From a virus: DNA of 26,134 nt. Below are positions 1 through 26,134 of the stretch, one piece after another; positions within the stretch are counted from its first letter, which is position 1; each line of letters opens with the position of its first letter. The stretch lies in UHGV virus genome UHGV-1624389; one strand, given 5' to 3'. A model generated the notes under the pieces. The model saw nothing but the letters and a program-made list of their open reading frames with translations, was not told the origin of the DNA and did no database searches. Both the position numbers and the translations under genes were made by a program.

Positions 1-763
1 CCGTAGCCTGCCCTGTCTGCCTGATATACATCGGACGGTAACGGGCAATAAATGCGTCTTCTGTGCGGGCCCGCAGCGCGGTGGTGGTGGCCTCACCGAA
101 ATCATCGTCGTTTCCGGCACGCTGCCCCGCCACCTGGTAAACAGAAAACCGCTCCCGGATACTCTTCTCCGTATCGCAGGAAAGGATGTTTTCCCCGAGT
201 ACCAGCGCGGTATGTGCCCGTGTTGAGCCAATACCGCCAATCACCAGCCTGCCGTGCGGGTCGTCGTAAGCCAGCGCCTGCTGCTGACCGAGTATTTTGT
301 TGATCACCTCGATCACCGTTTCACCGTGATCAGGCTGGACATCAGGAATAACACCCGACGGCGCACCACTGTTCACCACCTCAATGCCGAAAGGCGCAGC
401 AAGCGCCTGCGCAATCTGTACCAGCGATCGTCCGTTAAACTGTGTCGGTTTGGCTGCACAGTCAATCAGGTCAGCGGTCAGACTACGTCCGGCAATACCG
501 GTGCTGACCGAACGGGCATCGTAACGAACGGGCGTCGCCTCCACCCAGCCAGTGATCACCAGCTCATCACCAATCAGCACTTCCACTTTTGAACCGTTTT
601 TAATGCGCGGCTGAAGCGTGGTGATACCCTCATCTCCCGGCCACTGGCGGGTGATCTCCACACTGAAATCCCGCGCCAGTCGTTCAACACCGGCACCGAT
701 GCGCACCGATGTCCAGCCATTCCACTCCCGGCCATTTACCCGTAGCGTGACGTTATCGTTCAT
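1..763 (-). CDS. Phage baseplate/tail protein, Mu gpP / P2 gpD-like; N-terminal part only, 3' end runs off the window
   Basis: Minus-strand ATG at 763..761 overlaps the stop of the upstream N-like gene (ATGA). Hand translation gives MNDNVTLRVNGREWNGWTSVRIGAGVERLARDF... with no stop to position 1. Plus-strand ORFs 52-812 look like antisense artefacts. Family call is from gene order and memory only. Confidence 0.55.
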   Translation of the reverse strand, partial: MNDNVTLRVNGREWNGWTSVRIGAGVERLARDFSVEITRQWPGDEGITTLQPRIKNGSKVEVLIGDELVITGWVEATPVRYDARSVSTGIAGRSLTADLIDCAAKPTQFNGRSLVQIAQALAAPFGIEVVNSGAPSGVIPDVQPDHGETVIEVINKILGQQQALAYDDPHGRLVIGGIGSTRAHTALVLGENILSCDTEKSIRERFSVYQVAGQRAGNDDDFGEATTTALRARTEDAFIARYRPMYIRQTGQAT

Positions 764-16680: not shown

Positions 16681-17712
16681 ATGAGCAAGCGTGAAATCAA
16701 AACTAAAAAAATAATCTATAAAGAAGTCACAATGTCAGGTGTGTCAAAGACGCTCCAGTCGATGCTAATGGAGCTGCTCAAAAAACACACTAAAGCAGAT
16801 TCTCGCAAGGAAATGGTCAACCCAGGAGAGGAAGACTTATTCCGATTAATTAATAAACATGAAGAGTTCCAGGGAATGCTGTTTTGCCAGCTTGTTGCCT
16901 TCGAACCAGGCCATTCTCAACGCTATATACAGCTTAAAAATGATGCTGAATCTTATGAAATAAGATCCGTAACATCAGATGAACTTTCTAAAATGACTGT
17001 TGAAGAAGCTGAAGAAGCACGCACAGAGAGGGAACAGGTTGTGCGTGAGTTTATAGATTCAATTCTTTATTTCGGTGTATTTGGTAACAGCATCGTAGTA
17101 ATGCAATCCAGATCTCTTACAACAAGAGAACTTGAAACACATCTGAAATGGTTACTTGGCTCTTTAAGCAATTACTTAGGCGCAGAAAACATCTTAAAAG
17201 TTTCCGATAAGCCCAAAGAAGAGATCATTGAGGAAGTTCTAAAACGACCTGTAAAATCAGTTTCTATAGGTGCCCCTGTAACTGCCGTTAACGAATTTAG
17301 TCAAGGAAGCAAAAGCCCAGGCTGGGTTCCCGCAGGAACTGCCTCTGAACTCCTTAAAGCTATGTTAGCAGAGAAATGGGAAAGCTTCTTACGTAGTAGC
17401 AAGCTTGAAGATTGTCTTGATGACGCTAATCTTGAAGTAACGCTGAAAATCACATACAAGAGGAAAACTTCTGATTCAGGAGAAAGGATGTTAAGAAATC
17501 TTGTTGACGCTACCAGACACTACCCGGATGATGACGTCGTTGTTGAAATGGTTGGTGGGACGCGTTTAACTGGTAAAGAGATTCGTTTATGGAATACTGT
17601 TAAACTCACAACTTACAATAGCTTAATTGATGAACATGAACTATATGGCCAAATGCATGATTGGATGGTCGCTCTGATCAACAATGGAGAAATAGAAGAG
17701 ACCGATGAATAG
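16681..17712 (+). CDS. Insert gene A: soluble protein of unknown function, candidate sensor component
   Basis: Long ORF on the strand opposite to all flanking phage genes. The start is taken at MSKREIKTKK (16681) because the track's first Met at 16639 lies inside the putative promoter. About 343 aa, hydrophilic, no Walker A or nucleotidyltransferase GS...DxD motif seen. Visibly AT-rich. Confidence 0.7.
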   Translation: MSKREIKTKKIIYKEVTMSGVSKTLQSMLMELLKKHTKADSRKEMVNPGEEDLFRLINKHEEFQGMLFCQLVAFEPGHSQRYIQLKNDAESYEIRSVTSDELSKMTVEEAEEARTEREQVVREFIDSILYFGVFGNSIVVMQSRSLTTRELETHLKWLLGSLSNYLGAENILKVSDKPKEEIIEEVLKRPVKSVSIGAPVTAVNEFSQGSKSPGWVPAGTASELLKAMLAEKWESFLRSSKLEDCLDDANLEVTLKITYKRKTSDSGERMLRNLVDATRHYPDDDVVVEMVGGTRLTGKEIRLWNTVKLTTYNSLIDEHELYGQMHDWMVALINNGEIEETDE

Positions 17713-18244
17713 AGAGGCTGCTAAGTGCATATCCTACCAACAACCAAGTAGAGCATTCCACTTGGTTGTTGTAGTATTGCTTATGTTTACAGCCTGGTTT
17801 ATCGCCAATAAGTACATCATTTTAACATCCATTCCTTGGGGCGTATTAACTATCCTCATCTTACCAATTGCAAGTAGCGCAACCCTGTTTCATAAGTTAT
17901 CTGAAACCCAAAAAAACGTTGCTGAGGATTTATCTCGCAATGAACAAAGAAGGTTAACAAGGCTTATTAAAGAAAAAAGCCGGGCAACATTATTCATGCT
18001 TACGCTACAAATTTCGATAATAATTTTTGTGGCATTGATTAGCCTTGGCAATGAGTCCTCTTTTGTTCAACAGCACATTCATACTATAAGTAAATTCGTT
18101 GTTTGTGCTTTGGTTTTTTCACTATACTCATTAATCCCTGTTTTACTAGGAGTAAAGGAAGTTATTGATTTTGAAGGGTTAATAAAAACACGAAAAACAT
18201 TAAATAAGCGTAAAAAATCTGCATTATCCAAGCTTGGGAAGTAA
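17705..18244 (+). CDS. Insert gene B: four-TM small membrane protein, candidate effector
   Basis: 179 aa with four hydrophobic helices (HLVVVVLLMFTAWFIA, IPWGVLTILILPIASSATLF, LFMLTLQISIIIFVALISLG, FVVCALVFSLYSLIPVLLGV), a charged loop and a basic C-tail. Start overlaps gene A's stop (ATGAATAG), so the two are translationally coupled. Confidence 0.7.
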   Translation: MNREAAKCISYQQPSRAFHLVVVVLLMFTAWFIANKYIILTSIPWGVLTILILPIASSATLFHKLSETQKNVAEDLSRNEQRRLTRLIKEKSRATLFMLTLQISIIIFVALISLGNESSFVQQHIHTISKFVVCALVFSLYSLIPVLLGVKEVIDFEGLIKTRKTLNKRKKSALSKLGK

Positions 18245-24147: not shown

Positions 24148-24178
24148 CGTTCTGTGGTTAAAAATTGAAAGTGTTCTG

Positions 24179-24379
24179 CTAATCTTTCGGATAGATATCC
24201 GGTCTTAAGTCAGATTTCGTAATTGCACCTGACGTGCATTGCTCAAGTTTTTTAGCCAGCACAAAACTGGCTTTTTTATAGCCATTGAAAACCAGCCGTA
24301 AGTAGCCAGGTGTTGAGCCAACTTTTCCGGCCAACTCGCCCTGCTGTTCTTTGGTTAAAGAGTCCCAATACGCTTTCAT
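24179..24379 (-). CDS. cro: Cro-like HTH repressor (YdaS-like)
   Basis: 66 aa from ATG 24379..24377 (MKAYWDSLTKEQQGELAGKVGSTPGYLRLVFNGYKKASF...), preceded by GGAGG. Divergent from cI across an operator-rich spacer. The longer 167-aa track ORF would overlap cI and is rejected. Confidence 0.65.
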   Translation of the reverse strand: MKAYWDSLTKEQQGELAGKVGSTPGYLRLVFNGYKKASFVLAKKLEQCTSGAITKSDLRPDIYPKD

Positions 24380-24385
24380 ACAATA

Positions 24386-24454
24386 TGTACCTCCGGTGTA
24401 CATATTACATGATTGAAATGAACCTTCAAGATACTTGTACCTTAACGGTACAAG
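24386..24454. promoter_or_regulatory. Operator region with divergent pR-like and pRM-like promoters
   Basis: Inverted repeats with GTAC cores: TGTACCTCCGGTGTACA (24386-24402) and CTTGTACC-TTAAC-GGTACAAG (24434-24454). Minus strand carries TTGAAG, 16-bp spacer, TAATAT for cro. Plus strand carries TTGTAC (24435-24440), 17-bp spacer, TTTAAT (24458-24463), placing the start near the cI ATG. Confidence 0.55.
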
Positions 24455-24469
24455 GGTTTTAATTTCGTT

Positions 24470-25144
24470 ATGAAAACAATCCATGACATCCGGCGGTCTA
24501 ACGCCAGAAAACTGAGAGATGGTGTTGGCGGGAATTCTTCCTTTGCCACTATGATTGATCGCGAGCCAACCCAGACCAGCAGGTTTATGGGAGATGGTGC
24601 TACTAAAAATATCGGTGACAGCATGGCACGACACATCGAAAAATGTTTCGACCTGCCTGTCGGATGGCTCGATCAAGAACACCAGACAACGAACATCACA
24701 AAAAAACCTGATGTTTCAATCACTAATAAACAAATCACATTAGTCCCTGTCATATCATGGGTACAGGCCGGAGCATGGAAAGAAGTTGGATATTCTGAGG
24801 TTGATTTGAGCACAGCAGAAACGTATCCCTGCCCTGTACCCTGTGGGGAAATGACTTATATCTTGCGGGTGATAGGTGATTCAATGATTGATGAGTACCG
24901 CCCGGGAGACATGATTTTTGTCGATCCTGAAGTACCTGCCTGCCACGGTGACGACGTTATTGCATTGATGCACGATACAGGCGAAACCACCTTCAAAAGG
25001 TTGATAGAAGATGGGACACAGCGTTATCTCAAAGCGTTAAACCCAAACTGGCCTGAGCCTTACATTAAGATCAACGGTAATTGCTCTATAATTGGTACAG
25101 TGATTTTCTCAGGAAAACCAAGAAGATACAAAATCAAAGCCTAA
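24470..25144 (+). CDS. cI: CI-like repressor (HTH plus S24 LexA-like autopeptidase domain)
   Basis: 224 aa with a C-terminal ...VIGDSMIDEYRPGDMIFVDP...TFKRL... segment (Ser in GDSM, Lys in FKRL) typical of the S24 fold. Divergent from cro. Confidence 0.85.
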   Translation: MKTIHDIRRSNARKLRDGVGGNSSFATMIDREPTQTSRFMGDGATKNIGDSMARHIEKCFDLPVGWLDQEHQTTNITKKPDVSITNKQITLVPVISWVQAGAWKEVGYSEVDLSTAETYPCPVPCGEMTYILRVIGDSMIDEYRPGDMIFVDPEVPACHGDDVIALMHDTGETTFKRLIEDGTQRYLKALNPNWPEPYIKINGNCSIIGTVIFSGKPRRYKIKA

Positions 25145-25156
25145 TCAATGTTTATG

Positions 25157-25179
25157 AACCTGCTTCGGCAGGTTTTTTT
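25157..25179 (+). terminator. Intrinsic terminator downstream of cI
   Basis: AACCTGC-TTCG-GCAGGTT followed by TTTTTTT. Confidence 0.7.
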
Positions 25180-25183
25180 ATAC

Positions 25184-25216
25184 TTGACAATGTACCTTTG
25201 AGATACATAATGTACC
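25184..25216 (+). promoter_or_regulatory. pL-like promoter with GTAC operator repeats
   Basis: TTGACA (25184-25189), 16-bp spacer, CATAAT (25206-25211). AATGTACC is repeated at 25189-25196 and 25209-25216, overlapping the promoter. Confidence 0.55.
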
Positions 25217-25321
25217 CAAGCGAAACAACGAACAGGCAGGACGCCCACGAAGTAGCCGCCTGGGGCATATGAAGTCCAGGATGATTCGTTAGCAACAAAA
25301 AAGCGCCCTACAGGACGCTTA

Positions 25322-25333
25322 GCTCTTTAACAA
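25322..25333 (+). promoter_or_regulatory. BoxA-like element (nutL-like)
   Basis: GCTCTTTAACAA matches the boxA consensus (C/T)GCTCTTTAACAA in 12 positions. It lies about 110 nt downstream of the pL-like promoter. Confidence 0.45.
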
Positions 25334-25434
25334 TCTGGTCCCCATCAACAAGTAACTGATAACTTGAGGAGATGTGAAATGCACAAAACAGAACCCAAAA
25401 TCGTCGCGCCTGGCTACACAGATGAGGAAATTTA

Positions 25435-26134
25435 TGAGTGGATGACAAAGAAGCTTGAATCGCCACGGATAATCTAGACACTTCCGAGCCGTTGATAATA
25501 CTGGTTTTCATATTCTGTCGGTGACATCTGATCGCTGGAACCATGCCGACGCTTACTGTTATAAAACATTTCGATGTAATCAAAAATATCGCTGCGGGCT
25601 TCTTCCCGCGTTCCGTAGATCTTTTTCTTTATCCGTTCGCGTTTCAACAACTGGAAAAAGCTTTCTGCAACCGCATTATCATGGCAGTTACCGCGACGGC
25701 TCATGCTGCCCTCCAGGCCGTGTGATTTCAGGAACGACTGCCACTCATGGCTTGTGTACTGACTGCCCTGATCCGAATGAACCAGCACCTGTTTTTGGGG
25801 ATTACGGCGCCATACAGCCATCAGCAGTGCGTTCAGGACAATGTCCTTTGTCATCCGGGATTGCATGGACCAGCCGATAATTTTGCGTGAGAACAGATCA
25901 ACAACCACGGCAAGATACAGCCAGCCTTCGTGGGTCCTGATGTAGGTTATGTCCGTTACCCAACGCTTATCCGGAGCATCCGGATTGAACTGTCGCTGGA
26001 GCCTGTTGGGCGACACGATACTGGCCTCGCCTTTACGTGCCCGCGGGCTCCGGTATCCGACCTGAGCCTTTATCCCGACACGTTTCATCAGTCGCCAGAC
26101 TCTGTTCACTCCGCACTGTTGCCCGCTGTCCCGC
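25435..26134 (-). mobile_element. IS3-family insertion sequence, partial; extends beyond the right edge
   Basis: Contains an IS3-family orfB-type transposase. The left boundary is uncertain: the TGAGTGG... stretch at about 25435 is a guess at the terminal inverted repeat, made from memory of IS3-family ends. Confidence 0.6.
25474..26109 (-). CDS. IS3-family transposase OrfB (DDE integrase core)
   Basis: 211 aa: ...WVTDITYIRTHEGWLYLAVVVDLFSRKIIGWSM...HSDQGSQYTS...GNCHDNAVAESFF..., an RNase-H-like DDE pattern close to IS3 InsF as remembered. The orfA/frameshift region lies outside the window. Confidence 0.85.
   Translation of the reverse strand: MNRVWRLMKRVGIKAQVGYRSPRARKGEASIVSPNRLQRQFNPDAPDKRWVTDITYIRTHEGWLYLAVVVDLFSRKIIGWSMQSRMTKDIVLNALLMAVWRRNPQKQVLVHSDQGSQYTSHEWQSFLKSHGLEGSMSRRGNCHDNAVAESFFQLLKRERIKKKIYGTREEARSDIFDYIEMFYNSKRRHGSSDQMSPTEYENQYYQRLGSV

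Follow-up and report, generated by a model that had tools for sequence, protein, structure and literature searches.

The stretch of DNA analysed here (the window, 26,134 nucleotides) carries part of an Escherichia coli prophage and ends inside an insertion sequence. We consider it probable, at roughly four chances in five, that a common enterobacterial element of 1229 bp, related to ISEhe3, has transposed into the first small early-left ORF of a myovirus prophage of the SfIV/SfV/e14 type, in an orientation antisense to the pL-like promoter. The window corresponds to bases 1–26134 of a metagenome scaffold of 26,427 nt, COST17-1_SAMEA4545414_METAG-scaffold_930 (ENA assembly ERZ28576192), and the early-left genes together with int/xis would most likely be found on another contig and not have been deleted.

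The IS3-family element and its junction with the prophage

Positions 25456–26134 belong to an IS3-family element of 1229 bp, of which they form the right end. The segment beginning at 25456 is matched by megablast in 2889 of the 5426 complete E. coli genomes, many of them at 100%, and the matches start at 25456. On the minus strand lie the C-terminal 219 codons of the transposase gene orfB (25474–26134, stop codon at 25474–25476), an open reading frame that runs off the window. This fragment scores 285.7 bits against the NCBIfam model NF033516, ‘IS3 family transposase’ (cutoff 160), and carries the Pfam domains rve (E=1e-33), rve_2 and rve_3, while the OrfAB reconstructed from an identical full copy reaches 437.7 bits against the same model. 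The catalytic residues all fall in the window, again on the minus strand: aspartates at 25951–25953 and 25771–25773, a glutamate at 25663–25665 and a lysine seven residues past the glutamate, within the DD(35)E+K motifs VTDITY, HSDQGS and AVAESFFQLLK, which are spaced by 60 and 36 residues. A preliminary description of this DNA had placed an IS3-family element beside the immunity region and had the window ending in its transposase gene; both points are confirmed.

The terminal inverted repeat of the visible end (IRR, 25456–25488, minus strand) starts at 25456 with a perfect 13-nt stretch, TGAATCGCCACGG, set in an imperfect repeat of approximately 33 nt. Full copies bear the complementary 13-mer at their other end, and the element has the ends TG...CA. 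A reference full copy from E. coli 06-00048 (L004:1501-2729) is 1229 bp long with the ends TGAATCGCCACGG...CCGTGGCGATTCA. Its orfA encodes 92 aa, the slippery site, A7G, is found at IS position 303, and orfB is read in the −1 frame; PGAP marks a ‘programmed frameshift’ in this copy and names its product only as ‘IS3 family transposase’. In the scaffold's own copy the slippery site falls beyond the window, and IS30 sequence starts 5 nt from it. Duplications of 3 bp flank four copies of the element in other genomes (GCT, ATT, CTT and AAA), and from these the GCT at 25453–25455 is predicted to be the target duplication, to be met again at the other IS end. An identical IS copy in E. coli EC101 (L013, NZ_CP196707.1) interrupts a prophage major capsid gene and is flanked by a GCT duplication, GCT being also what stands directly before the window IS. 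Flanks ending in AGCT or AGCTT were seen at three sites, which hints at a weak target preference.

The junction lies exactly between 25455 and 25456, where the IS inverted repeat starts with its terminal TG. In alignments with the uninterrupted prophages SfIV and that of E. coli 1428 the window is collinear to 25455 and broken from 25456. Identity is 100% on either side, to uninterrupted prophages for the phage part and to intact copies in other places for the IS part. The element does lie just past the immunity region, as had been described, although both megablast and the alignment break put the boundary at 25456 and not at 25435. The interrupted gene is a 68-aa hypothetical ORF, the first after pL, of which translations and alignment identify 25 codons and 2 nt on the plus strand (25379–25455); read on into the IS, it yields a 32-aa product ending at 25477, and this fusion is recorded on one contig only, scaffold_930. 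The intact ORF has no family match in Pfam or NCBIfam, and its N-terminus is not rich in arginine, which rules it out as an analogue of N. The transposase gene runs antisense to the pL-like promoter with its 3′ end facing pL. The IS begins 245 nt past the −10 hexamer of that promoter, and the earlier figure of about 300 bp from pL to the start of the transposase gene was therefore roughly right as a distance, but it is the 3′ end of an antisense gene that lies there and not its beginning.

Since none of the 5426 complete E. coli genomes searched carries the phage–IS junction, a simple insertion is not demonstrated, and the exact junction likewise gave 0 matches in the GTDB species-representative genomes and JGI metagenomes. 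The second junction is predicted to run from the IS left end, ...CCCGTGGCGATTCA, through GCT into GGCAGCTATAAACCAGC; the corresponding pattern (IS left end, 2–5 nt, GGCAGCTATAAACC...) returned 0 matches in the same two collections, a negative that carries little weight because they exclude the other contigs of the ENA sample, SAMEA4545414. The reciprocal fusion protein was absent among the 54 ORF homologues obtained when 5.8 billion proteins were searched with the 68-aa query. The homologues P0033, P0035, P0039, P0042 and P0046 are frameshifted in or near an A7 run (TTAAAAAAACTG), which could reflect real gene decay or homopolymer sequencing errors.

The scaffold end and the fate of the early-left genes

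Neither an integrase nor an early-left gene is present in the window, as had been noted, and the scaffold itself ends 293 nt further on. The first 238 of these nucleotides still belong to the IS3-family element. At scaffold position 26373 the sequence switches to TGTAGATTCAATTGGTCAACGC... (scaffold 26373–26427 equals L003:10995-11049), and the last 55 nt are the same as the 55 nt immediately upstream of an annotated IS30 transposase gene in the same place in other genomes, so that the scaffold stops after exactly 55 nt of an IS30 copy that lies inside the IS3-family element. Because 55 nt is also a commonly used k-mer size (k=55, repeat vertex), we infer that the scaffold stops at an assembly break, IS30 and the IS3-family element both being multi-copy and uncrossable for a short-read de Bruijn assembler. 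The other end of the scaffold is also within the prophage, where position 2 cuts a baseplate-assembly gene (1–763, minus strand) at residue 254 of 359, leaving residues 1–254. The preliminary description had raised the possibility that these genes are missing or displaced and that the prophage is defective for excision. With the scaffold ending in nested multi-copy IS repeats the absence says nothing about deletion, and two relatives that carry other IS elements in this ORF keep xis/int, so that this part of the description lacks support in the form given.

The IS could nevertheless mark the boundary of a deletion or rearrangement, arising by adjacent deletion or by IS–IS recombination, in which case the early-left genes and int/xis would have been lost or moved and the prophage would be grounded and defective in excision. 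We regard such a history as unlikely. It has a precedent in a relative (L008) in which IS1 has entered the same ORF and the neighbouring 479 bp are deleted, and the multi-copy element, seen at up to 16 matching places per E. coli genome, provides substrates for recombination; the predicted second junction was found nowhere in the scans, and the position of the scaffold's other end within the prophage would also fit. However, there is no positive evidence for a deletion boundary in a scaffold that just ends in a repeat, the collections scanned exclude the contigs of the sample in which the second junction would be sought, and both readable IS-bearing relatives keep xis/int by thrW-proA. In the first of these (L012) an IS5/IS903-type element with a 9-bp duplication sits a few bases from the window's insertion point, beyond which the ECs1072-family gene and yfdP/Q, like the genes after them and int, are intact; in the second, the relative with the 479-bp deletion, xis, int and proA still lie beyond the IS1. 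Three draft contigs of relatives (L009, L010 and L011) stop at an IS junction in the 68-aa ORF in the same manner as scaffold_930. By analogy with these cases, simple insertion appears the likelier reading for the window copy.

The search with the 68-aa protein brought up several such variants, with C-termini that correspond to read-through into IS ends. Within about 75 bp of the ORF there are no fewer than eight different junctions, and four kinds of IS take part in them: ISEhe3-like, IS903-type, IS1 (at several sites and in both orientations) and elements with IS3411/IS629-like ends. The homologues concerned are L008, L011 and L012 together with P0032, P0036, P0043, P0047, P0049, P0051 and P0052; three of the junctions were checked on DNA and the others were inferred from read-through peptide tails. 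The ORF may be a recurrent IS target, and selection for shielding the early-left genes, xis/int and possible kil-type genes among them, from pL could account for this in place of chance or sampling bias, although we hold such a reading to be unlikely; if it were true, IS insertion in this ORF would be a route to prophage grounding.

Counted against simple insertion, the reading we prefer, are that the other IS–phage junction was not found in the collections scanned, that the junction seen here is in none of the complete E. coli genomes and that the IS part is mosaic. Positions 25456–26134 show 0 mismatches to the intact copy of E. coli 06-00048 (L004), against 12 and 8 to the IS30-bearing copies L005 and L006 respectively, while scaffold positions 26135–26372 differ from the intact copy at 5 positions and from the IS30-bearing L005 at 1. 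A stretch of 60 nt (26080–26139) is identical between the IS alleles, a length at which a k=55 graph could pass from one IS copy to another. The exact IS::IS30 allele of the scaffold (972 nt) was sought in complete genomes, where nothing better than 98.8% was found. The mosaic may have arisen when the assembler changed from one IS copy to another, or it may be a natural recombinant, and the IS30 junction, along with roughly 290 nt at the scaffold end, may come from a different IS copy of the sample. The phage–IS junction, which sits at the exact IS terminus, is unaffected by this pattern. That this junction is itself an assembly artefact, a chimeric path or read with the IS at this site in no genome of the sample, is highly improbable, for although the scaffold comes from a metagenome and the mosaic IS segment has a shared stretch permitting a copy switch, the break falls at the exact terminal nucleotide of the inverted repeat, as transposition yields, graph chimeras form in shared k-mers of which phage and IS have none at the junction, and the mosaic concerns switching from IS to IS beyond the window.

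The palindrome GCCGC|GGC, 5 nt away from the A7G site, is where the nested IS30 has entered the IS3-family element, and a duplication of 2 bp (GC) marks the insertion. This IS30 junction is present in 341 complete E. coli genomes; the IS30-bearing copies looked at were L005, L006 and L017, the last with IS30 in the opposite orientation. As the junction recurs across these genomes in different contexts and in both orientations, GCCGC|GGC looks like an IS30 hot spot, and targeting of hot spots with 2-bp duplications has been described for IS30 (PMC9333248). In L006 a 3-bp AAA duplication flanks the 2452-bp composite of the IS3-family element and IS30, which suggests that the two elements are able to move together.

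Where a contig stops within an IS, a prophage may wrongly be taken for truncated, and the window provides an example of this. A fitting annotation would be ‘prophage fragment ending in an IS repeat; completeness unknown’ and not ‘prophage lacking an integrase’; beyond annotation the significance of the case is small.

The immunity region and the prophage around the insertion

The immunity segment that leads up to the IS (24150–25455) is 98.5% identical in SfIV and 100% identical in many E. coli prophages. A cro-like repressor gene, ymfT, encoding a YdaS-type HTH protein, lies on the minus strand (24179–24382; 100% over 66 aa to ymfT of the related prophage in E. coli EC21Z-014, L007, with a weak Pfam YdaS_toxin match), and a cI-type repressor gene of the LexA/S24 family, ymfK, on the plus strand (24470–25144; Pfam Peptidase_S24, E=1.5e-26; 100% to ymfK of the same relative). 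Between the two are the operator-like palindromes ATGTACCTCCGGTGTACATA (24385–24404) and TGTACCTTAACGGTACA (24436–24452), corresponding to repeat families D2 and D3 and inverted repeat I3. The putative pL-like promoter, TTGACA-16-CATAAT, is on the plus strand at 25184–25211 and agrees with the consensus at 11 of 12 positions; it is overlapped by a further operator-like 17-mer, TGTACCTTTGAGATACA, which lies inside its spacer (25191–25207). The operator-like form TGTACC-N5-GGTACA is thus found three times, as 17–20-mers, twice between cro and cI and once in the pL-like promoter. As judged from the sequence, a terminator-like hairpin with a T-run follows cI on the plus strand (25156–25175), and a second one, with an 8-bp stem followed by TTTTGTTG, occupies the minus strand between the IS and cI (25301–25320). 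The minus-strand hairpin would be expected to stop transcripts of the IS, or in relatives those of the ECs1072-family gene, before they run antisense through cI. An Rfam search of the whole window for a nut/put-like antitermination RNA after pL gave no match.

What ought to follow pL can be seen in relatives. In E. coli EC21Z-014, whose prophage is 97% identical to the window, about 4 kb past cI hold small ORFs, yfdR, yfdT, a xis-like HTH gene and a tyrosine integrase gene that adjoins tRNA-Thr (thrW) and proA. SfIV and E. coli 1428 have the 68-aa ORF, the ECs1072-family gene and yfdP/yfdQ-type genes, followed in SfIV by xis and int. No N or red/recET-type gene is annotated in these three relatives. 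A lambda-type early-left operon with N and recombination genes, which the preliminary description had expected after pL, does not suit this phage group: in relatives its place is taken by the 68-aa ORF, the ECs1072-family gene, ORFs of the yfdP/Q/R/T type, the xis-like gene and int, and the lambda template fits for xis/int only.

If the prophage continues past the IS, the insertion would be polar on transcription from pL. The fused ORF would stop after 32 codons, and beyond it the transcript would contain no less than 1.2 kb of antisense IS RNA that is not translated, a length that would grow to 2.45 kb should IS30 be nested in this copy. Given this long untranslated RNA, and with no N-like gene or Rfam antitermination element recognisable, Rho-dependent polarity on the xis/int operon is plausible, and xis/int expression and possibly excision might be lowered by it. 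Even a simple insertion may therefore still reduce excision through its polarity on pL.

Each of the 36 annotated genes of the EC21Z-014 prophage lying wholly in the window was recovered by tblastn at full length or nearly so, in collinear order and with no internal stops (36/36), over a span that takes in the DNA-circularisation protein, tail, head, terminase, lysis, Q, replication, cro and cI genes; the 68-aa ORF is the sole one disrupted. The claim of an intact immunity, replication, lysis and morphogenesis set accordingly stands for immunity, replication, lysis and the head and tail genes, but goes too far for morphogenesis, which is incomplete in the window with the baseplate gene cut and the tail-fibre genes absent. 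The scaffold does not reach the remaining baseplate genes, the tail-fibre genes, xis or int.

Between the Q antiterminator gene and the holin gene, a two-gene cassette encoding proteins of 343 and 179 aa is found at 16681–18244 on the plus strand, opposite to its neighbours. PADLOC gave no match for the cassette, and Pfam returned for the 179-aa protein only a sub-threshold hit to LPG_synthase_TM (18.9 bits, cutoff 33.4). The same locus in relatives holds TIR plus caspase genes, a KAP NTPase, an NYN-domain gene, an SDH-type protease or a DNA methyltransferase; it is a variable cargo slot, often with defence-like genes.

Comparison with known elements and prophages

The element most closely resembles ISEhe3, which is annotated in Shigella phage SfIV (KC814930) and in S. 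flexneri genomes. The two have the same length of 1229 bp, are collinear throughout and share the layout of a 92-aa orfA with a 270-aa orfB as well as the same type of ends; a length of 92 aa is also given for orfA of ISEhe3 in the literature (PMC4924310). However, nucleotide identity to the copy annotated in SfIV is only 89.5% over 1229 nt. Isoforms in the ISfinder convention share about 95% DNA identity or more, and at the value seen the window element would be neither ISEhe3 itself nor an isoform of it. By that convention the window element is ISEhe3-like, related but separately named.

The prophage itself is of a familiar kind. The window is 91–94% covered at 97–98% identity by prophages in hundreds of genomes, and temperate myovirus prophages of the SfIV/SfV/e14 type, known from E. 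coli and Shigella, are collinear with the whole of it at 97–98% in 535 complete genomes, the difference being that the window copy has an IS in the 68-aa ORF after pL. A functional parallel is with lambda, where IS insertions in lambdoid early operons are classically polar. As in those cases, the IS lies within the first few hundred nucleotides of the early transcript and the first ORF is truncated, from which a fall in downstream expression would be expected by analogy; the difference from them is that no N-type antitermination gene is recognisable in the window. We are thus dealing with a known IS in a known type of prophage, at a site that is new among complete genomes and recurrent in kind.
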